Shown: positions 1 to 19,981, counted from the first letter of the stretch. The stretch is DNA of 24,026 nt from Armatimonadota bacterium (GCA_038207085.1 JBBRAE010000038.1:1-24026); one strand, 5' to 3'. Made by a program: numbers and translations. The notes: a model not told the origin generated them from the sequence alone.

Positions 1-105
1 ACGGTAGACGCGCTGATCGACTCCGCCCACCACGCGCTAAACCGCGCCAAGTTCTCAGGCAAAAACCGGGTGCGAAGCTGCCACGAACTCGCCAAAGCCA
101 GTTAG
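1..105 (+). CDS. C-terminal end of a GGDEF-domain (diguanylate cyclase-like) protein, truncated by the window edge
   Basis: Frame 1 reads TVDALIDSAHHALNRAKFSGKNRVRSCHELAKAS*, matching the GGDEF C-terminal pattern L..AD.ALY.AK..G(K/R)NRV; stop TAG at 103-105. Confidence 0.65.
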   Translation, partial: TVDALIDSAHHALNRAKFSGKNRVRSCHELAKAS

Positions 106-138
106 CCCGCTTTATTCGCTTCTCGAATAAAGCTTTCG
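106..138. repeat. Half copy (module A, 33 bp) of the 73-bp double-hairpin element; probable bidirectional terminator between convergent genes
   Basis: CCCGCTTTATTCG-CTTCT-CGAATAAAGCTTTCG flanked by TTAG (102-105) and CTAG (139-142); 10-bp perfect stem; matches the first 33 bp of the full copies apart from the loop. Confidence 0.9.
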
Positions 139-1053
139 CTAGAGCGCCTCTTCCAAATACTTCTCCGTCGAGTTCGCCGCGATCGCCCCGTCGGCGCAGG
201 CGGTTACGATCTGGCGGAAGCTTTTCACACGCACGTCCCCTGCTGCAAACACTCCAGGGATGTTGGTGCGCATATCCGGGTCGGTCGGGATATTGCCGAA
301 GCCGTCGATCTCGATCTGTCCACCAAGAAACGCCGTGTCGGGCTCTTGGCCGATCAAGACAAAGACGCCGTCGACCGCGAGGTTTGAAAGCCCCTCGCTT
401 TTCAGGTTCTTGACAGTCAGCTTCTCGACCGCCGGGCTGCCGTGGATACCTTCAACGACGCTGTCCCAGAGCACTCGAATTCTCGGGTTGGCGAGCGCGC
501 GCTCCTGGATGATCTTGGTAGCGCGGAACTTGTCGCGACGGTGGATAATCGTCACGTCGTCCGCAAATCGTGTAAGGTAGATGGAGTCCTCGACCGCCGT
601 ATCCCCTCCCCCTATCACCGCGACGCGCTTGCCCTTGAAGAACGGGCCGTCGCATGTCGCGCAGTAGGAGACGCCTCTGCCCTGGCACTCGTTTTCGCCG
701 GGAACACCAAGCCTGCGGGGTTTTGCGCCGGTTGCGATGATGACCGCTTTGGCTCGCTTCTCCCCTTCTGAAGTGACGACGACTTTGTCGGGCCGCGCGA
801 AATCGACCGCGGCGATGTCCGACATCAAAATCCGCGCGCCGAACTTCTCAGCCTGCTCCTGCATCGACATGCAGAGCTCAGGCCCCGTGATCCCGTTGGG
901 GAACCCGGGGTAGTTTTCTATGAACTCCGAGATCATCATCAGCCCGCCGGGAAATGTCTTCTCGATGAGCAGCGTGTCCATCCTGGACCGCGCGCAATAA
1001 GTCGCCGCCGCCAGCCCAGCCGGTCCGCCTCCGATTATAATAACGTCGTGCAG
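139..1053 (-). CDS. trxB: Thioredoxin-disulfide reductase (about 304 aa, probable CTG start)
   Basis: CATC redox motif, VIGGGDTA NADPH motif, PGVFAAGD. Extending upstream of the ORF-track Met gives LHDVIIIGGGPAGLAAA (FAD-binding motif) starting at CTG 1053-1051, with GGAGGG 7 nt upstream. Confidence 0.95.
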   Translation of the reverse strand: MHDVIIIGGGPAGLAAATYCARSRMDTLLIEKTFPGGLMMISEFIENYPGFPNGITGPELCMSMQEQAEKFGARILMSDIAAVDFARPDKVVVTSEGEKRAKAVIIATGAKPRRLGVPGENECQGRGVSYCATCDGPFFKGKRVAVIGGGDTAVEDSIYLTRFADDVTIIHRRDKFRATKIIQERALANPRIRVLWDSVVEGIHGSPAVEKLTVKNLKSEGLSNLAVDGVFVLIGQEPDTAFLGGQIEIDGFGNIPTDPDMRTNIPGVFAAGDVRVKSFRQIVTACADGAIAANSTEKYLEEAL

Positions 1054-1091
1054 GGTCGTACCCTCCCGTGAAAAAGTCTCGTATTGAGTAC

Positions 1092-1100
1092 ATTATAGCA
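1092..1100 (-). promoter_or_regulatory. Extended -10 promoter (TGCTATAAT) for trxB
   Basis: Perfect TGnTATAAT on the minus strand about 40 nt upstream of the trxB start. Confidence 0.6.
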
Positions 1101-1187
1101 CGGGGAAGGGCGTTTGGGGGATATGGCTAGCTTCCCTTTGCTGTAGTACGGCCCTTTGATTTGTGTAGCGCGCACCCTTCGAGAGCC

Positions 1188-1749
1188 TCAGGGTGAGGGG
1201 TTGGCTTGGGTGGAGGTGTGAGAGATTGTGCCGCGCGCAGAGGCCCGACGAAATGTCAAAATCAGCGCCCCGAGCCCGATCACGAGCACCACCAGACGAA
1301 CAAGCCCTCCAAGAATCGGGATCGAGCCCAGTATATAGATAATCAAAAGCCCGATCAAAAGGTGTATCCATATCGACTGACCCTTAAGAATCATCGAACC
1401 AAGCGCAACCGCGGCGACGATCATCGCGACCATCAGTGACACTATGTAGGCAAATGTCACAGCCACCCCAAGCGGGATTCCAACGATGGTGAGAATTGCG
1501 ATCATCGCTGCAATCGGCGTGACAACAAGGGAGATCAACCCCCAAATCGCCGACCGACCCGGAAGCCGCGCCGCGTTTGACGCTGCCTGTGAAGTTTGCA
1601 TCGACTGTGATGTTGTTCCCCGCTGCCACCAGGTCATCAGGAATCGGCGTTCCCGCAGAAAGCACCACGTTCTGGTTGGCGAACTGCTAAAAACCAAACG
1701 CCGAGGCGGCAAGTATCATAAAGAAAAGCACAAACACGGCTGTTTTCAT
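1188..1749 (-). pseudogene. Decayed membrane-protein gene (signal peptide, remnant of a bactofilin/beta-helix-like N-terminal region, multi-TM C-terminal domain)
   Basis: ATG 1749 (AGGAGG upstream) gives signal peptide MKTAVFVLFFMILAASAFGF, then in-frame TAG (1689-1687), then QFANQNVVLSAGTPIPDDLVAAGNNITVDANF. The hydrophobic C-terminal part (SAIWGLISLVVTP...IVGIPLG...IPILGGLV) is in another frame from about 1590. Confidence 0.65.
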
Positions 1750-1751
1750 AC

Positions 1752-2288
1752 TCAAGCAACCTCCTTTTCGAGCGTTTCAGAGAGCCTGCGCAGCCACTCT
1801 CTGAGCTGCGGACGGATAACGCCAGTCGCAGCAGGCCCCGCAAACCTTCCGGCAATCGGGGCGTCCACCAAGTGTTCACTCCTAAGACGGGCGACGCAGC
1901 CGCGCCCCTGAACCTTGAAAGTGATCTCTCCGTCCTCTCGAAAACCAAAAGCTCCCCTGACGGTCGTCCATCTGACTACAGGCGGCGAGCCTTCCCTCCA
2001 CTTCCGGTAGCGCACCGACAGAGGAAGCAGCCTTGCCGCCTGGACTTCGTAGGTCACCTCTTTCGGTTCGCGGCCAAGGATCTTCACCCCGGAGATGATC
2101 GGGATAAACTCAGGCTCGCGCTCGACCTGCATGATGAGGTCGATCACCCACTCGGGTGAGGCCGGCATATATTGTTCGAGCTCTACGATTTCTTTCTTCC
2201 GTTCGGCCAGAGCATCAAGGGCAAGCAGCACCGCCCCGGTGGCTATCCCGGCGGCCAACGACAGGCCGGACTTTCGTTCCATTGGCAT
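1752..2288 (-). CDS. SRPBCC (START/polyketide cyclase-like) family protein with N-terminal membrane anchor
   Basis: 178-aa ORF with GGGAGGG RBS, hydrophobic N-terminus, and the pattern PASPEWV.DLI..VE..PEFIP.I..VKIL typical of SRPBCC domains. Confidence 0.6.
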   Translation of the reverse strand: MPMERKSGLSLAAGIATGAVLLALDALAERKKEIVELEQYMPASPEWVIDLIMQVEREPEFIPIISGVKILGREPKEVTYEVQAARLLPLSVRYRKWREGSPPVVRWTTVRGAFGFREDGEITFKVQGRGCVARLRSEHLVDAPIAGRFAGPAATGVIRPQLREWLRRLSETLEKEVA

Positions 2289-2473
2289 ACCCTCCCGACA
2301 AGCTTTTGCCCAGTGGAGAGGGATGGGAAACGAACTTCCTTGAGCGCACAGAGAGGCTTGCAGCCTGTGAATCGTTATCCTCGCAAAACTGCGAGTAGAT
2401 AACTGAGGCCATCGTGGTATATACTGTCATTAACTACAATTCCATGCTCGCTTGATTGAGCACTCTGGAGACT

Positions 2474-3784
2474 ATGAAGACGATCAAAGATGTGATGACG
2501 CCTGACGTGGTGTGGGTCAGCCCGTCGGCTCAGGCAAAAAGCGCGATGTTCCTCCTGAAAGGACACGGGATAGATGCACTTCCCGTGGTGTATTCGCACG
2601 ACTCCGTCGTCGGGATCGTCTACTGCTCAAGCCTCCTCGGTCACGGACTCGAAACGCCCGTGATGGAGATCATGAGCAAGGAGTTCACCACCGTCACCCC
2701 GGATATGCCCGTCTACCAGGCCGCCGACCTGATGAAGTCCACTGGGCGAAGCCACATCCTTGTTGTCGAGTCTGGAACGCTTGTGGGAATCGTCTCGCGA
2801 AGCGACATCATCGACGAACTCGGACGAAGCTACGACACGCTGACCAATCTTCCACTGCAGGACGCCTTTCGCGAGTGGACCATGACCGCGCTTGAAAACG
2901 GGCGGGAGATTTCGATCCTCCTGATCGACCTCGACCAGTTCGGCAGGTTCAACAAGCTCTACGGGCACGTGATGGGCGACAGGGTGCTTCAGGGGGTTGC
3001 TGACGTCTTGAAGGCGGGAGTCGACCCACAAAGAGATTTTCTCGTCCGATACGCGGGCGATGAGTTTGCGATCGGGACCTACAGGCTTGCAACCGAGGCC
3101 TATGAGTTCGGCAAGCAGCTTATGGAGGGCGTGCGACAGATCGAGATACCCGGCCTGCCGGAGCATATCAGCGCGACATTTGGGGCAGCCGGAGGCAGGC
3201 GCGTCGACGGCAGGCAGGACGCCCACTCCGCCGCAACCCTTGACGACCTGATCACAAACGCAAGCCTGAACTGCACGCTTTCCAAGCCTCAGAAGCCGGA
3301 AGCCCCCCAGGAAGCCACAGCCGCAGGCGACCAGCAGCCTGCCCAAGCAGCGAAGCTTGGCGAACGGGCAAGGCTCAAGATCCAGACCATCAGGCTCGCG
3401 ACTACAGCGACCGAAGCGACCTCAGAGGTGATACTCTCGCGCGGAACCGAAGAGTTCGTGCACACCGTCTCAGGCTACTCGATCGGTGGCAGGTCGATGC
3501 TTCGACTTGTGGCCGAAGCTACGGCAGGCGCAGTCTCCAAGTCGCTTTCGAGCGACCACGGGGTAGCGATCGACGAAGTGTCGAGCTTCCAGACCGTCGA
3601 CGAGCGCGAAATGGTGATGGCGATCGCGACATTCGTCACCCCAAGAGGCAGCACGACCCACGCCGGGTGCGCCTTTGTGCGCAGGTCCGACCCCTACAAA
3701 GCCGCCGCCGCCGCAGTGCTATCAGCCCTCAACCGCCAAATCGCCGCCGCACCGTGGGCCGAGATTGCTCTGTCCAGTGAGTAG
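2474..3784 (+). CDS. CBS-pair + GGDEF-like domain protein with extra C-terminal domain
   Basis: Two CBS repeats (IKDVMTPDVVWV...LPVV...VVGIV; VMEIMSKEFTTVTPD...LVGIVSRSDI), then LIDLDQFGRFNKLYGHVMGDRVL and RYAGDEF. Start could alternatively be TTG 2456. Confidence 0.85.
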   Translation: MKTIKDVMTPDVVWVSPSAQAKSAMFLLKGHGIDALPVVYSHDSVVGIVYCSSLLGHGLETPVMEIMSKEFTTVTPDMPVYQAADLMKSTGRSHILVVESGTLVGIVSRSDIIDELGRSYDTLTNLPLQDAFREWTMTALENGREISILLIDLDQFGRFNKLYGHVMGDRVLQGVADVLKAGVDPQRDFLVRYAGDEFAIGTYRLATEAYEFGKQLMEGVRQIEIPGLPEHISATFGAAGGRRVDGRQDAHSAATLDDLITNASLNCTLSKPQKPEAPQEATAAGDQQPAQAAKLGERARLKIQTIRLATTATEATSEVILSRGTEEFVHTVSGYSIGGRSMLRLVAEATAGAVSKSLSSDHGVAIDEVSSFQTVDEREMVMAIATFVTPRGSTTHAGCAFVRRSDPYKAAAAAVLSALNRQIAAAPWAEIALSSE

Positions 3785-3786
3785 TG

Positions 3787-3795
3787 TGGTATAAT
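3787..3795 (+). promoter_or_regulatory. Extended -10 promoter (TGGTATAAT) for the hicAB remnant
   Basis: Perfect TGnTATAAT about 30 nt upstream of the TTG at 3826, which has an AGGGGG RBS. Confidence 0.6.
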
Positions 3796-3825
3796 CTATC
3801 CATCTGACAAGCAGGGGGACTTCCA

Positions 3826-3915
3826 TTGCCGGAATCCCTTCCAAAGGGACTGAAACCCGAAGAACTAGTGCGCGCGCTGGAATCTGCCGGAGGCCTTAGA
3901 CTACTAGGGAGGTAA
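3826..3915 (+). pseudogene. HicA-like toxin remnant (29 aa, internal deletion)
   Basis: TTG start with RBS; MPESLPKGLKPEELVRALESAGGLRLLGR* resembles the HicA N-terminus (LP.....ELVRALE.AG) but lacks the GSH catalytic region; lies 4 nt upstream of a hicB-like gene. Confidence 0.55.
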
Positions 3916-3919
3916 TCGA

Positions 3920-4215
3920 GTGCAGTATACCGTACTTATACATCCCGCCGAAGAGGGCGGTTATTGGTCTGAAGTTCCCGCGCTTTCTGGCTGTTTCTCA
4001 CAGGGCGAAAGCGTGGAGGAGACTCTGAAAAACACCTCAGAAGCAATAGCCCGCTTTATTCGTGAAGCGAATAAAGCTTTCGCTAACAGAGCATTATTCA
4101 CGCTACTCGTGAATAATGCGGGATAGAGTGCCATATTGCCACTCTCAGGGAAGAGGGGCAGGAGGTCAGCGGTGACGCTGGACTTCTGATCGGGCACGTC
4201 GACGTAGCCGCGTAG
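3920..4215 (+). pseudogene. hicB: HicB-family antitoxin interrupted by the 73-bp element
   Basis: N-terminus MQYTVLIHPAEEGGYWSEVPALSGCFSQGESVEETLKNTSEAI is typical HicB-like. Deleting 4050-4126 restores the in-frame continuation ECHIATLREEGQEVSGDAGLLIGHVDVAA* (stop 4213-4215), 72 aa in total. Confidence 0.85.
4050..4122. mobile_element. 73-bp miniature inverted-repeat element (MITE-like), full copy, 4-bp target duplication ATAG
   Basis: ATAG (4046-4049) and ATAG (4123-4126) flank CCCGCTTTATTC...GAATAATGCGGG; terminal repeats match 11/12; identical to the copy at 19852-19924; interrupts hicB. Confidence 0.9.
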
Positions 4216-4235
4216 GCCAACCTCCTCTAAATCCA

Positions 4236-6410
4236 CTACCGAACCACCGCTTGGCTCACCGGAGTGACGATTCGATACTTCGCGGCAAGCTCGGTGGCTT
4301 TCTTGCGCTTTTGCGCGTCGCCCGAAGCGGTCATATCCCACACCTGACTTTGCGCCCAAAGGAGTGATATATCCTCGGAGGATTTGGTAGCGCCTGCCAC
4401 CTTGGAGAGCGGCGCGTGTGTGCGAAAGATCGTCGGAAGTCCGTCTGAGCCGGAAATATAGTCAAAAAACGCCTGCATGTCATCTGCAAGCGTTCCCCTG
4501 CGCGCTATGGGGTGGACCGCGCCCGTGCCGTCGAGCGCGGCAAGGATCCTGTCCTCACCATCTAACACTACAAACGAGAATATCTTCACCTTTCCCGGGT
4601 TGCGCTTGATGCGCTCCAATATCTGGGCGATGGCTTTCTCTGAGCCGATCGGCTGCGGGCCGTGCACCCACAAGACCACACCGTTTTTGCGGCGAAGCGA
4701 CTCATCAACGGCTCGAAGAAGCCCAGGGGCGTTGTCGACACCGCCCTGGCAGCGCACGTGGAGCAGTTTTTTGTTCATGAGCTGAGACGCGGGGATATCC
4801 TGAATAGTGCTCTTAAAAAGAGTTTCCACTTGGTCGGCTGCCAGAAACATCGAAAACGTCGATGTCGGGATATTGGGAAGCGCATTGGCCAGTTCGGGCC
4901 TCCAGGGCCGCATCACGCCAGAGCCATCCACCGCCACCGCAACGTGCTCGACCAGCTTGGGCCGCACTTGGGCGAACATTTCGGCCACACACTCACCGGC
5001 GGGACCGATGGTATCGGGCGACCATATGCGGCTGACCGGCTTCCTCATGGCCATTATGCACCGCTTTTCGCCGCCCAACTCCTCATTGGTTGCCGATGTG
5101 ACGATCCGCCTGTGGTCCTGTCCGCGAGGCTGAGCACCTGTATCGTTACTCTTGAAGTCGATGTCGTTGTTGGAGCGAATATCGAGCGAGTGCTTGAACC
5201 CCTTCGGGATGTCGAAGCGGTAATCGGCAAACTTGGGCAGAGTGCAGACTCCATCAGTGGTAAGCGGCGCGGCAATACCGATGGTTATCTTGGTCCTGCC
5301 CTCGGAAGTGTATCGCAGCAAAAACACCCTGTCCGGCCCAGCCGATGACACGACCACACGCCCGCTCCCCGTCTGAGGAGCCACAAACGCGGCGTCGCGT
5401 GCCTTGCCGTTCTCCCATAGCGTCACTCTTGAGACAACCCCACCGGGCGGAAGCGCGATAATTGCCCCCGTGATGTGGCGGTCAGCTGAGTCCGACGCAA
5501 ACTCCAGAGTCCACTCCATGTGGCTCACGAGCCCTTCGGGGTCGATTGTGACATTGAGCTTGGAAGATGTGATTTTGTCTTTTGTGCCATAGCCGGTCAC
5601 TGCGCGGCTCCCACGAGGAGCGGGAACGGACTCATAGTTGAACCCGGTGACCCGGTAGTAGAGCTCCTGAGCCGTTGTTGACCAGCCCGGCGAGGCGGTA
5701 TAGTCCATGTTTGGCACTATTTGTCGGATCTTCTCATCAGATATATAGACGCTTGGCTTCAGGCCGTGGGCGACCCGCAGCAGTTCGGCCTCGCTGCCAA
5801 ACCTCCGCACGAGTGATGCCGCGCGGGCCTTTGTCTGATCGCTATCTGTGATCATCATATTGAGCCCGACGGCCGTAACGACAACTCCTGTCGTATACAC
5901 AAGCAGAAAAGCAAGTGAAAACGCAAACCCCATGCGGCTGCGCTTGGTCTGATCAGCAGGTTCGAGAAGATCGAGCGCGCGAATCCGTCTGCTGCTTTCA
6001 ATCGACGCCGCAAACGCAAAAAAAGGAGAAAGCCCAAGAAACCCGATACCCCAGAAGAGTATTCCTGCGACCGAGTTCGGTATCATAGGAATGAAAAGCA
6101 GACTATACACTGCCGAGACTGCAACCGATGCACCGGAAAGGGTCGTGACGAGAGACGGCCAGAGGCTTTTCCCGCGCAGGCACGTAATGATTGCTGACAG
6201 GTTTGCGACTGGGATCAGGGCAAACAAAAGCACGTGCCAGAGCGTTGGCAGCGGGTTGAAATAGTTTTTTGCGCAGATGTGCGTCGAGATCTCGACGACA
6301 AGTGTGATCAGAGGCATTACCACCCCAAAGATCAGCACATAGGTCATCCACCGCGCATAGCGGGACTTGGATGCGCCTTTTTCAGCCTGCTGAGTATCGA
6401 TATCGGACAT
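4236..6410 (-). CDS. Integral membrane protein with VIT-like and vWA-like domains
   Basis: 724 aa; about 5 N-terminal TM segments; HMEWTLEF...IALPPGGVVSRVTLWENG (VIT-like); VAVAVDGSGVM (vWA/MIDAS-like); C-terminal AAKYRIVTPVS typical of VIT/vWA proteins. Confidence 0.65.
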   Translation of the reverse strand: MSDIDTQQAEKGASKSRYARWMTYVLIFGVVMPLITLVVEISTHICAKNYFNPLPTLWHVLLFALIPVANLSAIITCLRGKSLWPSLVTTLSGASVAVSAVYSLLFIPMIPNSVAGILFWGIGFLGLSPFFAFAASIESSRRIRALDLLEPADQTKRSRMGFAFSLAFLLVYTTGVVVTAVGLNMMITDSDQTKARAASLVRRFGSEAELLRVAHGLKPSVYISDEKIRQIVPNMDYTASPGWSTTAQELYYRVTGFNYESVPAPRGSRAVTGYGTKDKITSSKLNVTIDPEGLVSHMEWTLEFASDSADRHITGAIIALPPGGVVSRVTLWENGKARDAAFVAPQTGSGRVVVSSAGPDRVFLLRYTSEGRTKITIGIAAPLTTDGVCTLPKFADYRFDIPKGFKHSLDIRSNNDIDFKSNDTGAQPRGQDHRRIVTSATNEELGGEKRCIMAMRKPVSRIWSPDTIGPAGECVAEMFAQVRPKLVEHVAVAVDGSGVMRPWRPELANALPNIPTSTFSMFLAADQVETLFKSTIQDIPASQLMNKKLLHVRCQGGVDNAPGLLRAVDESLRRKNGVVLWVHGPQPIGSEKAIAQILERIKRNPGKVKIFSFVVLDGEDRILAALDGTGAVHPIARRGTLADDMQAFFDYISGSDGLPTIFRTHAPLSKVAGATKSSEDISLLWAQSQVWDMTASGDAQKRKKATELAAKYRIVTPVSQAVVR

Positions 6411-6482
6411 TTACCGTCTCCTTATTGGCCCGAAGTTTCTGAATAGCAGTTGTATGACGACAATTACAGCCCAGTCTGTTCC

Positions 6483-6491
6483 TGCTATAAT
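6483..6491 (+). promoter_or_regulatory. Extended -10 promoter (TGCTATAAT) for the HD-domain gene
   Basis: Perfect TGnTATAAT inside the near-palindrome TGCTAT-A-ATAGCA in the divergent intergenic region. Confidence 0.55.
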
Positions 6492-6528
6492 AGCATACGG
6501 ACTGAATCAATCGAAAGGTTGCACGATT

Positions 6529-7023
6529 TTGACACCGTTCTTGAAAACAAAGCTTACAAAGTCGCTAATCGAGCACTTCGGGGACGACGACCGAAGGATC
6601 GAGCACGCCCTCCGTGTCACATCCTGGGCCGAGCGCATTATGGAAACTGAAGGCGGCGACAGGGAAGTGATTCTCTCCGTCGGCCTGCTCCACGACACCG
6701 GTATCAAGCCCGCCGAAGCCCTTGAGGGCAGTTCATCCGGCAAGCTTCAAGAGAAATATGGCCCCCCGGTCGTCCGATCTATACTCGAGCAGATCGGCCT
6801 CTCCGAAGACAAGATCGTCGAGTCTTGTGAGATCGTAGCCAACCACCACACCCCGTCCGGCATCCCCGGCGCCAACTTCGCCATCCTCTGGGACGCGGAC
6901 ATGCTAGTCAACATCCGTGACGACATAAAGCTCACCGACCCCGAGTCGACCAAGCGCCTGATCGAGCGAAGTTTCAGGACGGAGACTGGGAAACGGCTTG
7001 CGCGGCGGGAATTCGTCGGTTAG
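6529..7023 (+). CDS. HD-domain phosphohydrolase
   Basis: RIEHALRV...GLLHDTG...IVANHH...LWDAD motif set. Start placed at TTG 6529 because it lies downstream of the promoter and a GAAAGG; the ORF track starts at 6454. Confidence 0.8.
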   Translation: MTPFLKTKLTKSLIEHFGDDDRRIEHALRVTSWAERIMETEGGDREVILSVGLLHDTGIKPAEALEGSSSGKLQEKYGPPVVRSILEQIGLSEDKIVESCEIVANHHTPSGIPGANFAILWDADMLVNIRDDIKLTDPESTKRLIERSFRTETGKRLARREFVG

Positions 7024-7049
7024 AGCACCGATGACTACCTTTTCTGTAT

Positions 7050-7110
7050 GCTGCGGGAACGCTTCGTTTCGTCTCACTTCTCAAGTCTAAGAGAGTCTAG
7101 TTCCCGCAGC
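7050..7110. repeat. 11-bp perfect inverted repeat with 39-nt spacer between convergent genes
   Basis: GCTGCGGGAAC (7050-7060) and GTTCCCGCAGC (7100-7110). Confidence 0.6.
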
Positions 7111-7200
7111 GACGGTACAATCTCCCACCATTGCAGGCTGTATGCTACACGCCAAATCTTCAGACACGGCGCGATCTGAGCTAATAGCTAACAGCTCCCC

Positions 7201-8838: not shown

Positions 8839-9075
8839 TTGTTTTTTCCTCCGTCGTAGAATCCCTGCGGGCCAAGGCGTCGCGAATAAGTTTGCGTGGC
8901 AATTTGCCCGAGGGAGCCGGACGGGTCCGGCCGCCGCTTTTTGTGGCTTCCGGCAATGCTACAGCGCACTGTCGGCACGTTTATTTTACTGCTAAGCCGT
9001 TACGAAAACAAGCTTCGAGCATAAATGCCTGCCCGGCGCCTGACTTTTCGTGGAACCATGATATAGATGGGTTAG

Positions 9076-9148
9076 CCCGCTTTATTCGCTTCACGAGTAA
9101 AGCTTTCGCTAACAGAGCATTATTCACGCTACTCGTGAATAATGCGGG
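9076..9148. mobile_element. 73-bp MITE-like element, full copy with inverted first-hairpin loop
   Basis: Same sequence as 4050-4122 except loop CTTCA instead of TGAAG and one A>G change; flanked by TTAG (9072-9075) and ATAG (9149-9152). Confidence 0.9.
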
Positions 9149-9189
9149 ATAGATTACTCCGAATCAAGCACAGGAGGTCTGCGAACAAC

Positions 9190-9375: not shown

Positions 9376-9384
9376 TCGCTGAGC

Positions 9385-11406: not shown

Positions 11407-11997
11407 TTGAGTATATCAAAGTTTTCAGAGTTCGTTGAGGAAAATTACGAGATTCGCGAATGGCGACACGCTTCTGCCATACTGCGAACCGACTATCCGT
11501 CGGAGTGGGCAGATGTCATCAGCGCACTCACGGAGTTCAAGGTTCGAAAATCAGACATAGAGATCGGCGGGGGCAACAAATCCCACGTTGCAGGTCGTTT
11601 GGATGAAGCCCTTACGACTCGCGGCTGGCAAGAGAAATCTTTTAAGACCCAAATAGTGGTCGACGACGTTGCCGTGGACAGTCCAACTCACAAGGTAGAC
11701 TGCTTCAGGAATGGTGTTGCGCTCGAGATCGAATGGAACAACAAAGACCCATTCTTCGACCGCGATCTGAATAACTTTCGGTTGCTATTTGAGCTGAGAG
11801 CCGTCAGCGTCGGCATTATTGTCACGCGATCTGACGAGCTTCAGCAGATATTCAACTCACTCGGACGAGGTAGTTCTTATGGCAACTCGACTACTCATAT
11901 GTCCAAGTTGTTGCCGAGACTCGAAGGAGGAGGTGGAGGCGGATGTCCAGTATTGGTATTCGGGATAACAAAGAGCTTGTACTGCCCGAACTTATAG
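11407..11997 (+). CDS. BglII/BstYI-family type II restriction endonuclease-like protein
   Basis: THKVDCFRNGVALEIEWNNKDPFFDRDLNNFRLL (PD-(D/E)xK-type D...EIE site), GGGNKS, C-terminal GGGGGCPVLVFGI. Start uncertain (TTG 11407 or GTG 11356). Confidence 0.8.
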   Translation: MSISKFSEFVEENYEIREWRHASAILRTDYPSEWADVISALTEFKVRKSDIEIGGGNKSHVAGRLDEALTTRGWQEKSFKTQIVVDDVAVDSPTHKVDCFRNGVALEIEWNNKDPFFDRDLNNFRLLFELRAVSVGIIVTRSDELQQIFNSLGRGSSYGNSTTHMSKLLPRLEGGGGGGCPVLVFGITKSLYCPNL

Positions 11998-12584
11998 CGC
12001 CACAGGTATCAGAGGCAATAACGGAGTGCGCCGCGAAAGATCTGTTGTCTTTCAAACCGGCTCACTTTGGTACTATTCTGGCTGATCCCCCCTGGCAGTT
12101 CGCGAACAGAACTGGCAAGATGGCTCCTGAGCATAAACGTCTGAGAAGGTATCCAACCATGACACTGGACGAGATCATGGAATTGCCCGTTTCTCGTATA
12201 GCGCGTGCTCAGTCCCATCTCTACCTTTGGGTGCCAAACGCCTTGCTCGCCGAAGGCTTAGAGGTGATGAAGCGCTGGGGCTTTACCTACAAAACCAACA
12301 TGGTTTGGTACAAGATCCGAAAGGATGGAGGACCCGATGGACGCGGCGTCGGTTTCTATTTTCGAAATGTGACTGAACTAGTGTTGTTCGGTGTGAGAGG
12401 CAGTATGCGGACGCTTGCTCCAGGCAGACGCCAGGTCAATATCGTCAGCACCCAGAAAAGGGAGCATTCGCGCAAGCCCGATGAGCTGTACGATATTGTT
12501 GAAGCATGCAGCCCCGGCCCGTATCTCGAAATGTTTGCACGCCACTCTCGCGAGGGATGGTGTCAATGGGGAAACGAAGTATAG
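11943..12584 (+). CDS. MT-A70 family N6-adenine DNA methyltransferase
   Basis: ILADPPW catalytic motif, HLYLWV, WGFTYKT, REHSRKP, YLEMFAR, WGNE. Start uncertain; overlaps the end of the endonuclease. Confidence 0.9.
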   Translation: MSSIGIRDNKELVLPELIAPQVSEAITECAAKDLLSFKPAHFGTILADPPWQFANRTGKMAPEHKRLRRYPTMTLDEIMELPVSRIARAQSHLYLWVPNALLAEGLEVMKRWGFTYKTNMVWYKIRKDGGPDGRGVGFYFRNVTELVLFGVRGSMRTLAPGRRQVNIVSTQKREHSRKPDELYDIVEACSPGPYLEMFARHSREGWCQWGNEV

Positions 12585-12983
12585 TTTCATATACGAGATT
12601 GTATACAACAGCGTGAAGGATTGTCTATGGTCATGGGTGTCTGCACTCATGACCATTTTTGCATCTTGAACTGAGCAAAATTCTGCGGCGTCGATCACGG
12701 GTTCGTCCAAACTCACTGATAACCCCGCCCCACCATCACCCCTTTCACCCTCGCTCACCCGTTCTGTCACCCACAGGGGTTAATATTTTTACACCAAACT
12801 TGCCCACATGGGCTAAAGATCACCCACTGGCCGCCGATAATGAGGTTAAGCAAGCGGGAGAGACTGGTCGGGGTTACTCCTTTATTGCTTGATGGAGCGT
12901 TGGGACGAAAGCCTCCCGAGTCAACGCCTGGAGCGTCATTCCCTGTCGGCAAAGATACGCTGCAGTGCAGGAGTTGATCCTTT

Positions 12984-13649
12984 ATGGAGTCTGTAAACAT
13001 TCAAGCAGCCAGGACAATTGTGGTATCCGACCACAGGCTGCACCGTGAAGTGCTTGCCCGATGCCTTGCGAGCGAAAGTGATATCGAAATCGCAGGGACG
13101 ACGGGAAGCGTGGAAGGCGCGCGTTCGCTCGTTGCGGGCGAAAGAGTCGACGTAGTAATCCTTGAGGCTGGGGAATCAGACCTGGCCGTGATGGAATGGT
13201 TTGCAGAGATGAAGTTGGGCGAGGACTGCCCGAAACTTGTGGTGCTCGCCGACCGTCACGACGAAGACGCCGCCCTGAGATATATCGGCGCCGGCGCGGA
13301 GGCGTATCTGTTGAACGACTCGTCCTGCGAGCAACTGATCTCCGCGATCGAGCGGGTATTGACAGGGGAATACGTCTTTGACCCCGCGCTTGCGGTGCCT
13401 GTGGTCCGCCGGGTTGCGGCAAGTCTGCACACTTCCCGGTCGGCAGCTGAGACTCCGACGTTTGTGGGGCTATCCAACCGCGAAAAAGAAATCGCGGCGC
13501 TTGCTTCACAGGGAATGACCAACGAAAAGATCGCGGAGGCGATGTTTATCACGCCAAACACGGTCAAGACCCACCTGCGACGGGTCTACCAGAGGCTCGG
13601 GATATGCTCCCGACGCCAACTTATGCAGAAATATTTACGCGCGGCGTAA
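12984..13649 (+). CDS. NarL/LuxR-family response regulator with atypical receiver domain
   Basis: C-terminal LuxR HTH LSNREKEIAALASQGMTNEKIAEAMFITPNTVKTHLRRVYQRLG; receiver-like N-terminus; AGGAG RBS. Confidence 0.9.
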   Translation: MESVNIQAARTIVVSDHRLHREVLARCLASESDIEIAGTTGSVEGARSLVAGERVDVVILEAGESDLAVMEWFAEMKLGEDCPKLVVLADRHDEDAALRYIGAGAEAYLLNDSSCEQLISAIERVLTGEYVFDPALAVPVVRRVAASLHTSRSAAETPTFVGLSNREKEIAALASQGMTNEKIAEAMFITPNTVKTHLRRVYQRLGICSRRQLMQKYLRAA

Positions 13650-13715
13650 CACCCGCGTTTTTGTTTTGAAAAGCTTCGTCAAGCCAACGCTTGCGAGGAC
13701 ACCTCCTACCCTCGT

Positions 13716-13769
13716 CCGTGGGAAGGCGGATCCGGCTGGCCCCTGGTCCTCCTCCCACGGTACTTTTTT
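13716..13769 (+). terminator. Probable intrinsic terminator or structured 3' region after the LuxR gene
   Basis: CCGTGGGA (13716-13723) pairs with TCCCACGG (13753-13760), followed by TACTTTTTT. Confidence 0.55.
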
Positions 13770-13899
13770 GCCCCATGCGCCGACGTTTGCAAAATTGAGC
13801 AGTCGGCCCGAAATCCAGCAGGAAATCCCCGTCAAGCCGCGAAGTATACCTTGGAAGCCGTAGCGCAAGCGCTGCTACTAAACCAGAATGGCAGGCTAG

Positions 13900-15921
13900 A
13901 TGATAGATATCAGGGAGTTTCCAATCTCACAGAAGACGCGCAACCTCGTGCGCTTTTGCGTGCATCCCGGCTATGAGGTGATTGACGACAGCTTCATCGC
14001 AAACTACGGGTTTCGGGACAGGGGCAGCCACTTCTCGATCCTGAAGAGCACCGAAACCGCACCGGGCCCCGACCAGTGCTTCTCAAACTTCGACCGAGAC
14101 GCCCGCCCCGTGTTCGCCAAGCTCCTTGGCCTTGAGTTGGACTTTCCCGGCCCCTCCGCCGGGCAAAAAGAGCACTACCAGCTCTACAGCTCGATCAACT
14201 ACTACCGCTCGCACATCGAAGAGCACTTCTGCGCAAACGGCATCACCCCCCTGCCTCCGATCCAGGGCACGTGCGTCATGTTCTACCCCGAGACCGACCG
14301 ATTGGCAGTCTCCTACACCCTTGTCAACAACTCCAGCACCGACGTCTCGTTGCGCCTGAGGTGGAAAGCGGTCCCGGAGACGGGAATAGACCGCTCTTTC
14401 CAGACCAAAGAAAACGGCTTTGCGGTGCGAGTGAGGCAAAAGGTCGAGGTGGAGTACGACTCCTACGCCGCCCTCTCCTCAAGCGAGCCCGATCTGCGCT
14501 TCAGCGTTCAGGACGACGCAATTGTCTCAGACTGGGTCGATCGCACAGTCCCCGCAGGAGGGGATACTCGCTTTGATTTTGCAATAGATTTTGGTTTCAA
14601 GCCTTCGACGCCCCAGGCAATTCCTGCCAACACAGGCGCGCAGCTTCGTGCAACAGTCGCCGACGCCGAACGGGCCTATGCCTCGCTTCCGCCGCTTCCG
14701 GAGGGCTTCCAAGGCTTCGAACAGCTCGTCCTGAAAGCTGCAGGGACGCTTAGAACGCTTCGCTACATGGATATCGACCCCGCGGGCGAGCCGGTATGGA
14801 GCATCCACGCGGGCAAGTGCGGCATCGCCTGCACCTACTTCTGGGACAGCGCCTTCACACTCCTTGGGCTTGGGCTTTTGGGTGACACCGACACCGCGCA
14901 CGGGGTCTCCAAACTGCTGCTAGACGGCGTCAAGGAAGACGGCACCCCACCTCTCTACTACATCCTCAGGCAGCACAGATACGAGCACCAGATGCCGATC
15001 TACGCCTGGGGAGTCGGTCACCTGCTCGGCCTGCGACCCGACGACGATTTTCTCGCCGACGCCTACCAGCCACTCAGCCGTTACGTGAACCACTGGGTCC
15101 GGGACTGTGACTCAGACCAAAGCGGGCTTGTGGAGTATCCTGACGGCGGAACCTGTCTTGACGACTCACTTCGCTGGCAGGACCGGTTCCCCATCAGCTT
15201 TTCGCCTGGGGAGAAGTGGTTTGAGAAAGATTGGGGAGAAACGCACCCGGGCCAGTTCAAAAGCCCGGACACCAACACCCACCTCTACCTCGAATGCCGC
15301 ACGCTTGCCGCGATGGCCCGCCGTCTGGGCAAGGAAAGTGAGGCCGAAGTTTGGAACATGCGCGCCGACAGGCTTGGGAAGCTTATCCATTCCGAGCTTT
15401 TCAACCCCAAAAGCGGCGTCTACGAGGACCGCTCGGCCAAGGACGGCCGTTTCGTCGGGATGGTGACCGCGGGAAGCTTCCTTCCCCTCTACGCAGGCAT
15501 CACTCCGCCCGAGATCGCCCGGGACATCTGCCGGCGGTATCTGCTGGACCCCGAGCACTTCTACACCACGATGCCTTTTGCATCAGTCGACCGGGCCCAC
15601 CCATCGTTTAGAAGCGGGGGAGGTCTGTTCGTGCCGCCCGAGCACCCCGGCGCGCTCGTTCAGCAGAGTTACTGGAAAGGCAGGGCGTGGCCGCATGTCA
15701 GCTTTTGGCTGGTCGGGGCGCTCTACCGCTCGGGGCTTGAGGCTGAAGCCGACGAGGCCGCACGCGCGATTCTCGACGCCATCAGCCGCTCAGAGGCGAT
15801 CCACGAGTGCTACGACAGTCTGACGGGCTTTGGCAACGGCCACCCAGAGTTCGCCTGGAGTTCCGCCGCAGTGCTCGCGCTCGCATACGGACTGTACAAG
15901 CACGATCCGGTCGGGATCTAA
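13900..15921 (+). CDS. (alpha/alpha)6-barrel glycoside hydrolase, GH63/MGH1-like
   Basis: 673 aa; YFWDSAF, LDDSLRW, FLPLYAG, YWKGRAWPH, HECYD, FAWSSA motifs. Confidence 0.75.
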   Translation: MIDIREFPISQKTRNLVRFCVHPGYEVIDDSFIANYGFRDRGSHFSILKSTETAPGPDQCFSNFDRDARPVFAKLLGLELDFPGPSAGQKEHYQLYSSINYYRSHIEEHFCANGITPLPPIQGTCVMFYPETDRLAVSYTLVNNSSTDVSLRLRWKAVPETGIDRSFQTKENGFAVRVRQKVEVEYDSYAALSSSEPDLRFSVQDDAIVSDWVDRTVPAGGDTRFDFAIDFGFKPSTPQAIPANTGAQLRATVADAERAYASLPPLPEGFQGFEQLVLKAAGTLRTLRYMDIDPAGEPVWSIHAGKCGIACTYFWDSAFTLLGLGLLGDTDTAHGVSKLLLDGVKEDGTPPLYYILRQHRYEHQMPIYAWGVGHLLGLRPDDDFLADAYQPLSRYVNHWVRDCDSDQSGLVEYPDGGTCLDDSLRWQDRFPISFSPGEKWFEKDWGETHPGQFKSPDTNTHLYLECRTLAAMARRLGKESEAEVWNMRADRLGKLIHSELFNPKSGVYEDRSAKDGRFVGMVTAGSFLPLYAGITPPEIARDICRRYLLDPEHFYTTMPFASVDRAHPSFRSGGGLFVPPEHPGALVQQSYWKGRAWPHVSFWLVGALYRSGLEAEADEAARAILDAISRSEAIHECYDSLTGFGNGHPEFAWSSAAVLALAYGLYKHDPVGI

Positions 15922-15922
15922 C

Positions 15923-16480
15923 CTATTTCACAACGTCAAGAATCTGCTTAAACTCAGGAGCCGTCGCGTCGCGCAGCATCTCATAGATCGCCGCCTCGCT
16001 TGATGTGACTACCACACCCGAGCCGCGCATCTTCGCAACGCCCGTCCGCCAGTCGCTGTCTTTGCGAGAACTCACCGCATCCTCAGCTACCTGCACGCTG
16101 TAGCCGACGTGCAAGAGGTCGTGCGCGGTCTGACTCACACAAATATGCGTCTCAACCCCACACAAGAGTACCTGCCGCCTGCCGGCCTCCGCTATCGCCC
16201 CACCAAAGCACTCGACCCCACAGCAGCTAAAGGTCATCTTATCAAGCCGGGTAGAGTCGGGCAGTAATTCAGCAACTTCGGGTATAACATCCCCCATCCG
16301 AGCCTGATACTGAAGCGTGGTTATTACGGGAACACCAAGCACGCCAGCCGCGCGAATCAGCTTGATCGTGTTCGAGATAACGCGCTCGCGCTCAAATATC
16401 GAGCGCAAAAACGGCTCCTGCATATCGACGACGACAAGCACGGCGTTATCTTTATCGAGAACATGGGGATGTCTGGTCAC
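15923..16480 (-). CDS. Isochorismatase-family cysteine hydrolase
   Basis: LVVVDMQE, DKMTFSC, GVETHICV (D-K-C triad), EDAVSSR. Confidence 0.85.
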   Translation of the reverse strand: MTRHPHVLDKDNAVLVVVDMQEPFLRSIFERERVISNTIKLIRAAGVLGVPVITTLQYQARMGDVIPEVAELLPDSTRLDKMTFSCCGVECFGGAIAEAGRRQVLLCGVETHICVSQTAHDLLHVGYSVQVAEDAVSSRKDSDWRTGVAKMRGSGVVVTSSEAAIYEMLRDATAPEFKQILDVVK

Positions 16481-16495
16481 GTTTCACCTCAATTT

Positions 16496-16606
16496 GGAGT
16501 GCGGCACGCTCGCGCCGCTTTGTTTTCGGGCGACAGGCAGGCGCGCAAGCGCCGAACCTGCACCGGTCGAAAGATCTGTGAAAGCGGCGCTCGCACGCCG
16601 CACTCC
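16496..16606. repeat. REP doublet (REPIN-like): two inverted GGAG-footed hairpins
   Basis: GGAGT-GCGGC-n8-GCCGC-TTT (16496-16521) and the inverted partner AAA-GCGGC-n8-GCCGC-ACTCC (16581-16606), 59-nt spacer. Confidence 0.75.
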
Positions 16607-16670
16607 GAGATCAGAACTTGCCGCCACCAGCGATGGCAACCAGGATATTCGCTGACAGCCTATATGCAGG

Positions 16671-16706
16671 AAACCGCCGCCAAAGAGAAAAACTCCCCGG
16701 CGGCGG
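16671..16706 (-). terminator. Possible terminator downstream of the isocitrate dehydrogenase gene
   Basis: CCGCCGCC (16674-16681) / GGCGGCGG (16699-16706) stem followed by only a short U-run on the minus strand. Confidence 0.4.
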
Positions 16707-16727
16707 CCAATCTCTGTTCCCTGTTAC

Positions 16728-17876
16728 CTAACCGTTCATCTCGCGAATAATCGCATCCGCGAACTCACTCGTTCCGACTGCGGTAGGGTCGTTTCGATCA
16801 GGCTTCATGTCGTAGGTGACGTCTTTGCCCTCTGCGATAACCTTGGCGACAGCTTTCTCAAGCTTGTCGGCCGCCTCAGTCTCACCGATGTGGCGGAGCA
16901 TCAGCATCCCCGAAAGGATCATCGCGGTCGGGTTGACCTTGTTCTTGCCCTTGTACTTCGGTGCGCTGCCGTGGGTCGGCTCAAAGAGCGCGATTCCGTC
17001 ACCGAGGTTCGCGCCGGGAGCGACACCAAGCCCGCCGACAAGCCCCGCACAGAGGTCCGAGAGGATATCGCCGTAGAGGTTCGGCATAGCGATCACATCG
17101 TAGAGCTCAGGCTTCTGCACGAGCTGCATGCACATGTTGTCCACAAGCCGCTCCTGGTAGACGATTCCCGCGCCCAAGCCGTCGACCTTGCCCACAAGCG
17201 TCGGGTCGGGCTCAACGTCCGCGAGGTCGTCCCACTCGAACTTCGCGCCGTAGGCCTTCGCGACCTGACGCGCGACCCGGTAGAAGAGTCCGTCGGTGAA
17301 CTTCATGATGTTCGCTTTGGCGACTGCGGTCACACTAGACCTGCCGTTTGCGATCGCATAATCAAAGGCATACTTGATGATCTGGCGGGTTCCGGTGACT
17401 GAAATCGGCTTGATCGAGATCGCCGCATCCTCACGGATCCTGCCGCCTGCCATCTTGATGATCTCCTTCGCCTCATCGCTTCCAAGATCGTACTCGACGC
17501 CAGCGTAGAGGTCTTCGGTGTTCTCACGGACGACCACGAGGTCAACGTCCTGATACTTGGACCTGATACCGGGGTAGTATTTGCAGGGCCGCAGGCATGC
17601 GTAGAGGTTCAGCTCCTTGCGAAGTGCGACGTTTACGCTCCTGAAACCGGTGCCGATCGGGGTTGTGATCGGGCCTTTGAGCGCGATTTTGTTGCGGCGA
17701 ATGCTCTCAAGCACCTGCTCGGGAAGCGGGGTGCCGTATTTGTCCATAACGTCGATGCCGGCTTCCTGGACCTCCCAGTCGATCTCGACTCCAGTCGCAT
17801 CGATAACCCGCCGGGTCGCCGCTGTAAGCTCAGGGCCGGTGCCGTCGCCGGGAATAAGTGTAATTTTGTAAGCCAA
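16728..17876 (-). CDS. icd: Isocitrate/isopropylmalate dehydrogenase family enzyme, most like NAD-type isocitrate dehydrogenase
   Basis: [78 protein letters not shown] start at 17876 with GGAGG 8 nt upstream. Confidence 0.8.
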
Positions 17877-18154
17877 AAGAAACTCCTCCATACCCGGTCG
17901 AGCGCCGGGCGATATTTAGCCAATAGTAACCAAGCCTATAATACCGTAATATATGGAGGAGGTTCAAGCCCGGAAATCCGGCGCAAAGACTATTTCAGCA
18001 GGCAGACTCATCGGCTATTCTCCTCGCTGGTTGAGCCAAGGGTACACCCGCCTATCAGTATTCGTCAACCCCGGAAGGAAACGGGAACCCTTGTGCATAA
18101 CACATGATGTATAGTTTAAAGAAGGATAAGCCGATTTCCCCGGCGCGGTGGCAG

Positions 18155-19234
18155 ATGGCAGAGGCAGAGAAGAACATCGAGGAAGTGCGAAACAAGATAG
18201 ATCGGATCGACCGCGAAATGGTCGACCTGATCAACAGGCGCGCGGAGTGCGCAATCGAGGTCGGCAAGCTGAAAGACGCCAAGACCGCGAGCATTTTTGC
18301 GCCTGAGCGAGAGGCGCAGGTGCTTGCCAAGGTTCTCGAGCAAAACCGCGGCCCGCTCCCCGACAAAACGATCTCCGCGATCTACCGCGAGGTCATCTCC
18401 GCCTGCCGCGCGCTCGAAAAGCCGATCACGGTCTGTTACTTCGGCCCCGCCGGGAGCAACACCCACATCGCAAGCATCCACCGATTCGGCGAGTCGACCG
18501 ACTTCATACCGGTCGAGACTATCCCCGACGTCTTCAACACCGTCGAGCGCCGCGAGGCAAACTACGGCGTCGTTCCGGTGGAGAACTCGACCGAAGGCAT
18601 AGTCAACCACACGCTTGATATGTTCCTGGTCTCAGATCTCAGAATCTGCGCCGAGATATTCACCCCGATCTCCCACAACATACTCTCAGCGGGCACCGAT
18701 CTCTCGCAGATCAAGCGCATCTACTCCATCGGCCAGGCGATCGCCCAGTGCCGCAACTGGCTAAGAACGCACCTTCCCGGCGTCGAGATCCTGGAGGTCT
18801 CAAGCACAGCCAAAGCCGCCAAACTATGCCAGGGCTACCCCTCAAGCGCCGCGATCGCCTCGACGCTCGCCGCCCGAGAGTATAACCTGAACATAATCTC
18901 AGAGGGAATCGAAGACAACCCCCACAACCGCACCCGCTTTTTGGTCGTCGGCTACAGCAAACCGAACCCCAGCGGCCGCGACAAGACCTCAATCGTCTTC
19001 AGCGTCCCCCACAAGTCCGGTGCGCTCTACAAGTCGCTCTCGATCTTCGACGCCGAGGGCCTGAACATGACCATGATCGAGTCGCGCCCGACCAAACAGA
19101 TGCCGTGGGAGTACGTCTTCTACATCGACGTGCAGGGCCACGAAAAAGACGAAGCCGTCCAAAACGCGCTGGCGAAACTCGCCGAGACGGCGCTTTTCGT
19201 GCGAGTGCTTGGGAGCTTTCCGGAGGCGGAATAA
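18155..19234 (+). CDS. pheA: Bifunctional chorismate mutase / prephenate dehydratase (P-protein)
   Basis: AroQ domain (VRNKIDRIDREMVDLINRRA...PERE), PDT motifs GVVPVENSTEG and NRTRFLV, ACT-domain IESRP; ATG 18155 preferred. Confidence 0.95.
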   Translation: MAEAEKNIEEVRNKIDRIDREMVDLINRRAECAIEVGKLKDAKTASIFAPEREAQVLAKVLEQNRGPLPDKTISAIYREVISACRALEKPITVCYFGPAGSNTHIASIHRFGESTDFIPVETIPDVFNTVERREANYGVVPVENSTEGIVNHTLDMFLVSDLRICAEIFTPISHNILSAGTDLSQIKRIYSIGQAIAQCRNWLRTHLPGVEILEVSSTAKAAKLCQGYPSSAAIASTLAAREYNLNIISEGIEDNPHNRTRFLVVGYSKPNPSGRDKTSIVFSVPHKSGALYKSLSIFDAEGLNMTMIESRPTKQMPWEYVFYIDVQGHEKDEAVQNALAKLAETALFVRVLGSFPEAE

Positions 19235-19255
19235 GCTATTACGGAGGATTTCATA

Positions 19256-19486
19256 ATGGCCGCTTTTGACAGAATCACAGTAGAATCAGGCAAGATGAAC
19301 GGGCAGCCCTGCATACGGGGCTTGCGACTCACCGTACGCAGAGTGCTTGAGGCGCTCGCATTATATCCTGACCGCGAAGAACTCCAGCGCGAATATCCGG
19401 AGCTTAACGACGAGGACATCCGGCAAGCACTTGCCTATGCAGCAGCGAATCTTGATGATTCAGTCATGGATCTTCCTGCAAGTTGA
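19256..19486 (+). CDS. DUF433-family antitoxin
   Basis: RITVESGKMNGQPCIRGLRLTV..VL...YPEL..EDIRQALAYAA is the DUF433 signature; GGAGG RBS. Confidence 0.9.
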   Translation: MAAFDRITVESGKMNGQPCIRGLRLTVRRVLEALALYPDREELQREYPELNDEDIRQALAYAAANLDDSVMDLPAS

Positions 19487-19851
19487 TGAGAGTATTGCTT
19501 GACCAGGGTCTGCCGTATTCGGCAGCGTCAATTCTGACTCAACAAGGCATCGACACTCTCCACGTCGGTGACATAGGAGCGTCTTCAGCCACCGACGAAG
19601 AGATTGTACAGATAGCGCGGAATCGACAAATGGTTATTGTAACGCTCGATGCCGATTTCCACGCCATCTTGGCTCTTTCCGGACAACACTCACCGTCCGT
19701 TATCCGCATACGTGTAGAAGGACTTCGGGCAGAATGGCTGGCAAGCCTTCTTCAAATGGTCATTGAAAGATGCCGAGAACAGTTAGCGAGCGGCGCGTTG
19801 GTAACTGTCACAGAGAACAAGCTACGAGTTAGGCGTTTGCCCATAGCTTAG
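19486..19851 (+). CDS. DUF5615-family PIN-like toxin
   Basis: MRVLLDQGL...DEEI...IVTLDADF...PSVIRIR; TGATG overlap with the DUF433 gene. Confidence 0.88.
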   Translation: MRVLLDQGLPYSAASILTQQGIDTLHVGDIGASSATDEEIVQIARNRQMVIVTLDADFHAILALSGQHSPSVIRIRVEGLRAEWLASLLQMVIERCREQLASGALVTVTENKLRVRRLPIA

Positions 19852-19924
19852 CCCGCTTTATTCGTGAAGCGAATAAAGCTTTCGCTAACAGAGCATTATT
19901 CACGCTACTCGTGAATAATGCGGG
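19852..19924. mobile_element. 73-bp MITE-like element, full copy, 4-bp target duplication TTAG
   Basis: TTAG (19848-19851, contains the toxin stop codon) and TTAG (19925-19928) flank a copy identical to 4050-4122. Confidence 0.9.
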
Positions 19925-19981
19925 TTAGTGATCTGGCGGAATAAGTAAGAACCGTCCACAACATCAATAGGGGGTATTACA

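Follow-up and report, generated by a model that had tools for sequence, protein, structure and literature searches.

The stretch of DNA analysed here (24,026 nucleotides of an Armatimonadota bacterium, GCA_038207085.1 JBBRAE010000038.1:1-24026, called the window throughout and at its full length) contains three full copies and one half copy of a short repeat, which is best explained as a 73-bp non-coding miniature inverted-repeat transposable element (MITE) moved in trans by a DDE transposase of the IS1380 family, a reading to which we give a probability of about 0.82. The window is one contig (C38) of an 83-contig, 3.35-Mb assembly with 57% G+C, whose genome is coded G000 below. The reading is carried by a 4-bp duplication of the target, the copy number in the genome, the match of the element's ends and target to those of IS1380-family insertion sequences (ISs), and the interruption of one gene. 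As a kind of mobile DNA this MITE is known and ordinary; the family itself is new, and its notable traits are the size (73 bp, with 35-bp derivatives), the ends doubled into hairpins and the oriented use of YTAR target words.

Structure, copy number and target-site duplication

Both ends of the element are paired with inverted repeats of themselves located further inside, giving two hairpins. Specifically, the terminal inverted repeats (CCCGCTTTATTC versus CCCGCATTATTC) agree at 11/12 positions in all three full copies of the window, and the copy at 4050-4122 is laid out as hairpin 1 (stem GCTTTATTCG), the linker TTTCG-CTAA-CAGA and hairpin 2 (stem GCATTATTCACG). The copy at 9076-9148 has the loop of hairpin 1 inverted (CTTCA) and one mismatch in the stem of that hairpin. 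The terminal 12-mer CCCGCWTTATTC, allowing at most one mismatch, is present 7 times in the window; 100 shuffled sequences predict 0.27 occurrences, and none of them reaches 7. Folded as DNA, the element forms a 10-bp and a 12-bp stem, each closed by a 5-nt loop, at -22.8 kcal/mol (z = -6.4; 0/200 shuffles equal this value). A preliminary description, made from the window alone, had placed the copies as in Table 1, given their flanks as ATAG/ATAG, TTAG/ATAG and TTAG/TTAG for the full copies and TTAG/CTAG for the half copy, and proposed the two stems; direct reading of the sequence and the folding bear all of this out. It had further held that the window encodes no transposase, in agreement with which all transposase profile matches fell on other contigs, and the Rfam comparison that it proposed returned no match at gathering score anywhere in the window.

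Table 1. Element copies, flanking words and the interrupted gene in the window
Feature	Coordinates	Strand	Evidence or remark
Left flank of half copy, TTAG	102..105	+	TAG 103-105 is the in-frame stop of a GGDEF-type gene running off the window start (sequence read, frame 1)
Half copy	106..143	+	Hairpin 1 (106-138, loop CTTCT), TTTCG, then CTAG
hicB (antitoxin), 5' part, interrupted	3920..4049	+	PF15919 HicB_lk_antitox positions 1-41, E 3e-8
Left target-site duplication, ATAG	4046..4049	+	Sequence read
Full 73-bp element, subfamily A reference	4050..4122	+	Sequence shared by 12 copies genome-wide
Right duplication, ATAG	4123..4126	+	Its TAG terminates the truncated hicB frame
hicB, 3' part, displaced	4123..4218	+	Residues 43-72 of an intact 72-aa homologue, 19/30 identical, E 1e-13
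Full copy 9076-9148 with flanks TTAG (9072-9075) and ATAG (9149-9152)	9072..9152	+	Sequence read
Full copy 19852-19924, same sequence as 4050-4122, TTAG left and right	19848..19928	+	Sequence read

A BLAST search of the whole genome with the 73-mer found 174 loci (E up to 1e-3), and an end-anchored search yielded 117 full-length copies, with a length of exactly 73 bp in 113 cases, so that the element is abundant genome-wide as had been supposed. The 4-bp flanks are identical in 97/117 full copies and, with all copies oriented alike, these identical flanks read TTAG (58 copies), CTAG (25), ATAG (6), CTAA (5), GTAG (2) or CTAT (1). The two sides agree in 106/117 copies at the first flank position and in 112/117 at the fourth, where 44% and 80%, respectively, would be expected if they were independent. 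More specifically, the 12 copies identical in sequence to the one at 4050-4122 are flanked by TTAG (8), CTAG (3) or ATAG (1), and both sides are equal in every case. Since copies of identical sequence carry differing but paired words, the four bases derive from the target and not from the element; this is a true 4-bp target-site duplication, and the early proposal of a MITE with terminal inverted repeats and duplicated NTAG words holds at genome scale. By the linker and one base of the right end, the 113 copies of exact length fall into three subfamilies (A 57, B 27, C 20, others 9), with a mean divergence of 2.2% from the subfamily consensus.

The copy at 4050-4122 interrupts hicB. An apparent small open reading frame (ORF) at 3920-4126 begins as HicB and then reads into the element, and it should be annotated as a hicB gene broken by the insertion. 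When 4050-4126 is removed in silico, a hicB gene of 72 codons results, colinear with the 72-73-residue homologues of other genomes, and these homologues, uninterrupted at the insertion point, can be read by sequence comparison as an indirect empty site. The three best in-silico excision candidates for further gene disruptions genome-wide were also read, and none was a convincing interrupted gene. Candidates C1 and C15 likely have the gene start just past the insertion point and would thus be upstream insertions, and C63 shows a low-complexity frame only; hicB is the sole clear gene interruption among the candidates read.

More generally, 45/117 copies (38%) coincide with the stop codon that terminates an open frame of at least 80 codons, compared with 23.6% of the 11,559 YTAR sites in the genome, and at least 50 open codons on both sides remain after excision for 5/117 copies, compared with 48% of 1,500 random YTAR sites. 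The surviving copies are therefore intergenic or located at gene ends. Such a distribution would be expected if the duplication rebuilds a TAG or TAA stop while insertions within genes are lost, leaving survivors between genes or on stop codons.

Insertion sequences of the IS1380 family with similar ends

In the source genome, contig C75 holds a broken IS1380-family transposase, two frames of which match PF13701 DDE_Tnp_1_4 (E 4e-51 and 1.5e-14) and the fragments of which have NF033539 IS1380 as their best NCBIfam match; the outer end of this copy consists of CTAG followed by CCCGAATAATTCG. Another genome of the same order (G033) carries a 1664-bp IS1380-family copy with flanks CTAG and CTAA and a transposase split over three frames. 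Its left end (CCCGGATAATTCGTGA...) agrees with the left end of the MITE at 15/20 positions, and the first 16 bases of its right end (CCCGCATTATTCACGA...) are those of the MITE right end (16/16). Directly next to the left end of this 1664-bp IS (locus L016, G033:C98, about 1070-1110) lies an orphan MITE-like end, CCCGCATTATTCGCGAAG..., which points away from the IS and has its CTAG in common with it.

Further ISs of this clade were found elsewhere. A scan of species genomes located an intact 453-codon frame behind CTAG and the end CCCGGATAATTC... on a 1817-bp contig (L037), as well as, in a metagenome-assembled genome (MAG) of the Capsulimonadaceae (L038), a 1677-bp IS copy that has CTAG on either side and a frame of 462 codons. 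A metagenome scan, queried with a 16-mer conserved just inside the IS left end and returning mostly chance matches, added 8 further IS left ends, including two complete copies (1666 and 1662 bp, with frames of 465 and 457 codons), in one of which the right end, CCTGCTTTATTCATGA, matches the MITE left end at 15/17 positions. The IS ends of C75, L037, L038, L081 and L094 belong to the same type as the MITE ends. Overall, the full-length ISs measure 1662-1677 bp, encode one frame of about 450-465 codons that matches PF13701/NF033539, and have CCCG..ATTC..GA at their ends in common with the element; the 13 flanks at IS left ends read CTAG (10), CTAA (2) or TTAG (1).

The preliminary description had likened the ends of the element to those of the IS1380 family. 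Since the ends of these ISs are closely similar to those of the element and their flanks are likewise YTAR words, that comparison is now supported by sequence. It also agrees with the literature, in that IS1380-family ISs (IS1380, ISEcp1, IS1247) and MITEs derived from them resemble the element in their 5'-CC...GG-3' termini and 4-bp duplication, two features that IS1380 has in common with piggyBac (PMC10045372, passages on IS1380); IS1247 is listed with a 5-bp repeat in Table 2 of PMC3281130. Unlike these ISs, the element is 73 bp long and non-coding, each of its ends is doubled into a hairpin, and it targets a defined NTAG/YTAR word, with a preference for one orientation. Titles, abstracts and IS1380 passages of the papers listed gave no link between IS1380 and MITEs, and the literature search found nothing pairing Armatimonadetes with miniature inverted-repeat elements.

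Based on these comparisons, we infer that the element is moved by an IS1380-family transposase, perhaps by cut-and-paste. Its ends (CCCGCTTTATTCGTGA... and, on the other strand, CCCGCATTATTCACGA...) would be the binding and cleavage sites of the enzyme, which would insert the element at a cut in NTAN that is staggered by 4 bp (in the order TTAG > CTAG > ATAG, CTAA), and repair would then duplicate the four bases.

Difficulties and alternative drivers

Several observations weigh against a driver of the IS1380 family, the first group of which concerns the ISs themselves. In the source genome, the start of contig C75 truncates the IS copy there, the two parts of which are in different frames, a second copy (contig C55) is a relic, and no intact IS1380 transposase is present in the 83-contig assembly, although a copy may be unassembled. 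None of the IS ends is identical to both MITE ends, with left-end identities from 10/13 to 15/20, and identical flanks occur in 1/4 complete IS copies, the others differing at position 1 and/or 4. Moreover, MITE and IS seldom occur together in the assemblies searched: the genomes G008 (20 contigs) and G039, in both of which the element has a high copy number, gave no PF13701 match, and G033, which has the IS, gave no hairpin match. MAGs often lose multicopy ISs, and the absence of an IS is therefore weak evidence.

A second difficulty is that no empty site was seen directly, either in two public sequencing runs of one study or in relatives. Compared with window positions 1-20000, the contigs of the two runs are interrupted at each copy, and none of the joints listed leaves out exactly 77 bases; such breaks are uninformative for empty sites and are not evidence of fixation. 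Five genomes of the same family share genes at 64-78% identity but not the gene order around the four sites, so that no orthologous intergenic site could be read. The earlier claim of recent activity consequently stands in part: the 12 identical copies and the interrupted hicB speak for it, but no empty site was seen and the IS1380 copies of the genome are broken or cut.

The third group concerns the use of the target. On the asymmetric word, the element is oriented so that TTAG is read in 58 copies and CTAA in 5, and at sites away from stop codons the two counts are 35 and 3. In addition, the flank word depends on the subfamily (A, TTAG 30 and CTAG 5; B, TTAG 5 and CTAG 14; Fisher p 2e-5), with subfamily B, whose right end is GCAGG, favouring CTAG and subfamilies A and C favouring TTAG. 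Neither the 58:5 bias nor the link between subfamily and flank is predicted by a simple model of a symmetric transposase. Where the two flanks of a copy disagree, the mismatch lies at the outer positions (1, 4) in 16/20 cases (binomial p 0.012). Plain mutation was considered as the source of these mismatches and rejected: the observed overall rate (16.3%) agrees with the expected one (16.4%), but the copies with mismatched flanks have on average 0.76 internal changes compared with 1.52, and 7 of them have none. Since the mismatched copies are not older, recombination between copies or another process is needed. The oriented use, the subfamily-flank link and the mismatches could possibly reflect recombination, a choice of target that depends on the ends, or a carry-over of donor flanks as in piggyBac.

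The last of these possibilities can be stated more precisely. The piggyBac reaction passes through a hairpin intermediate and excises seamlessly, and by analogy the element may leave its donor site with a 4-nt overhang of the flank and integrate best at a target that pairs with it, such that lineages would inherit both word and orientation. We regard such a memory of the flank as unlikely; if true, it would explain the 58:5 bias, the subfamily-flank link, the outer-position mismatches (16/20) and the 7 mismatched copies without internal change.

Further observations on the placement of copies can be set beside these. In two tandem pairs of full copies (C16:54737-54886 and C11:34289-34438), a single 4-bp word (TTGG and CTAG, respectively) lies between the copies, as if the second had inserted into the duplication of the first. 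Neighbouring copies are co-oriented in 38/66 pairs compared with 32.9 expected (permutation p 0.13), and the link between copy orientation and GC skew is weak and non-significant (68 versus 49). YTAR words are scarce in this genome, with 11,559 sites in 3.35 Mb compared with roughly 52,000 under equal base composition.

Among other drivers, a transposase of the IS5 type would suit the target, as IS5-group elements generate 4-bp duplications at YTAR/CTAG, and both the YTAR consensus and the length of the duplication fit. However, no IS5-type IS with CCCGC... ends was found among the 118 places at which the terminal 12-mer occurs other than in full copies (partial, solo, hybrid and chance occurrences, and about ten orphan ends before unrelated sequence, which were not followed), nor in a scan of the source genome for inverted end pairs 150-5000 bp apart with equal flanks, which returned only pairs of separate small copies and no autonomous copy. 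The ends on the IS1380-family copies match those of the MITE in sequence, beyond the target alone, and an IS5-family MITE is thus distinctly improbable.

Alternatively, the repeat could be a structured element selected by the host (a terminator, an mRNA stabiliser or a small RNA), the copy number of which reflects a function at gene ends. The 38% of copies located exactly at stop codons, the strong folding and the two-hairpin layout, kept in other genomes despite a different sequence of the left hairpin, would all agree with such a role. On the other hand, Rfam gave no match at gathering score, the hairpins lack T-runs, a simple terminator scan flags one weak site in one copy, and the flank duplications, the hicB interruption and the patchy bursts among related genomes (103, 3, 0, 0, 0; see below) are signatures of transposition. 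Host selection as the main explanation is therefore very unlikely, and a secondary role for the host may exist beside transposition.

Repeats of the REP/REPIN type, moved as single-stranded hairpins by the Y1 tyrosine transposase RAYT, deserve mention since the element consists of two palindromic hairpin units, its orientation-specific target use recalls the strand-specific Y1 systems, and the genome does contain a RAYT gene (C5:70970-71554, NF047646 E 2e-29). That gene, however, lies between near-identical repeats of its own (C5:70780-71760), which are unrelated to the element, measure about 100 bp and combine a GTAG head with G+C-rich palindromes; the 73-mer is absent from the 8 kb around the gene. 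Furthermore, GTAG flanks occur in 2/117 copies only, and the outer flank bases, which vary between sites, recur on the two sides of a copy, a pattern that Y1 transposition does not generate; we consider this origin highly improbable. Hardly credible, finally, is a palindrome-associated element (PATE) of the IS200/IS605 type, which would insert 3' of a TTAG-like tetranucleotide and carry its own 3' NTAG: the subterminal hairpins at both ends and the one preferred TTAG orientation (58 versus 5) fit, but the right tetranucleotide would then travel with the element and not co-vary (identical copies show TTAG/TTAG, CTAG/CTAG and ATAG/ATAG), the ends are true inverted repeats, and the Y1 genes found are RAYT-like only.

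Internal architecture, relatives and implications

The linker of the element has a CTAA or CTAG word at its centre in the three main linker types (81/113 parsed copies) and in most variants that are less common. This internal word is also where about 12 half copies terminate, the one in the window among them. Besides these, solo forms of the second hairpin (35 bp, 4 cases) and of the first (2 cases) exist with NTAN on both sides, and three hybrids combine the left arm of one hairpin with the right arm of the other. Because the linker keeps CTAA/CTAG, the half copies stop there and 35-bp one-hairpin forms flanked by TTAG exist, the 73-mer may well have arisen by fusion of two one-hairpin mini-elements placed side by side on one target site. 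The loops are also variable: that of hairpin 1 is TGAAG in 84 copies and inverted (CTTNA-type) in about 21/113 parsed copies, 14 of which have exactly CTTCA, the inverse of the main form, and about ten loops of hairpin 2 are inverted (AGTAG 5, AGAAG 4, AGAAT 1) relative to the main loop CTACT (45). Such inverted loops look like a flip-flop inversion of palindromes.

Beyond the source genome, the second hairpin (at most one mismatch) was found in 8/401 genomes of the phylum, all of one class (G000 133, G008 103, G039 67, G035 5, G006 3, and one each in G003, G005 and G021), and reversed-pattern controls gave 0 in all 401. The element of G008 is a two-hairpin unit of about 75 bp with the same right hairpin and a different left one (CCCGGATTATGCG...), and 10/17 copies read there have identical flanks, including the non-canonical pair TGTA/TGTA. 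Within the genus of G008 the counts are 103, 3, 0, 0 and 0, which fits lineage-specific bursts.

Regarding the surroundings of the copies in the window, the half copy deserves particular attention. The window and contig C5 begin with the same 141 bases; C5 continues after this shared gene end with a full copy, and the window with the half copy and then other genes. As the two contigs share these 141 bases and split inside the repeat, the half copy marks a fork of the assembly (base 141/142), which suggests a strain variant or rearrangement through the element, or a duplicated locus or gene end. A run contig across positions 1-167 has a depth of 23.7 compared with about 13 elsewhere in the window, i.e. 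about twofold. An oxidoreductase gene on the minus strand (142-981) has its stop codon, TAG, at 139-141, where the plus strand reads CTA. The copy at 9076-9148 is intergenic, between a PEPCK-like gene (7204-8838, minus strand) and a polysaccharide deacetylase gene (9388-11181, minus strand), and the left TAG of the third full copy (19849-19851) is the stop codon of a 122-aa DUF5615/PIN-like gene (19483-19851). Upstream of the latter lies a small ORF (19256-19486), the end of which overlaps the gene start; the two look like a pair of toxin-antitoxin type, so that two small modules of this type (hicB at 3920, and 19256-19851) adjoin element copies in the window. Elsewhere in the genome, three identical sequences starting with AGGCCT and continuing as CCCGCAGTATTCTGAGAG... 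(C42:21531, C45:19402 and C79:3900) probably represent the end of a different repeat or IS that has no relation to the 73-bp family.

Compared with known systems, a parallel outside the ISs is the eukaryotic piggyBac, which has CCC...GGG ends like the element and a 4-bp duplication of a tetranucleotide centred on T-A (TTAA in piggyBac, YTAR here). The transposases of IS1380 and piggyBac are distant kin, according to the parts of PMC5718144 and PMC10045372 that treat them. Unlike piggyBac, the element is prokaryotic and its target is not confined to TTAA. Correia/NEMIS, ERIC, RUP and other bacterial MITEs are short non-coding repeats, abundant in intergenic DNA, with inverted ends and a TA-containing duplication that can be folded into hairpins, as is the element; they are about 100-170 bp long and tied to other IS families, whereas the element is 73 bp long and has 35-bp one-hairpin derivatives. 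REPINs, or REP doublets with RAYT, are alike in being paired short palindromic units, intergenic and present in hundreds of copies. REPs, however, have an invariant GTAG head inside the unit and no target duplication, while the flank of the element varies and is duplicated, and the RAYT of this genome has different repeats of its own.

None of the points that follow would surprise specialists in mobile DNA. For annotation, the 174 loci in G000 and the copies in G008 and G039 can be labelled as one MITE family. Copies of the element are likely substrates for recombination, and one contig fork lies within a copy. The finding also links the YTAR target and the CCC...GGG ends to an IS1380 clade of uncultured bacteria and reinforces the parallel with piggyBac. 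At 73 bp, and perhaps at 35 bp, the element would be an unusually small substrate for studying the recognition of ends and targets by IS1380-family transposases and, if the memory of the flank were true, its 35-bp one-hairpin forms would be the smallest self-sufficient substrates of an enzyme of the IS1380/piggyBac type.

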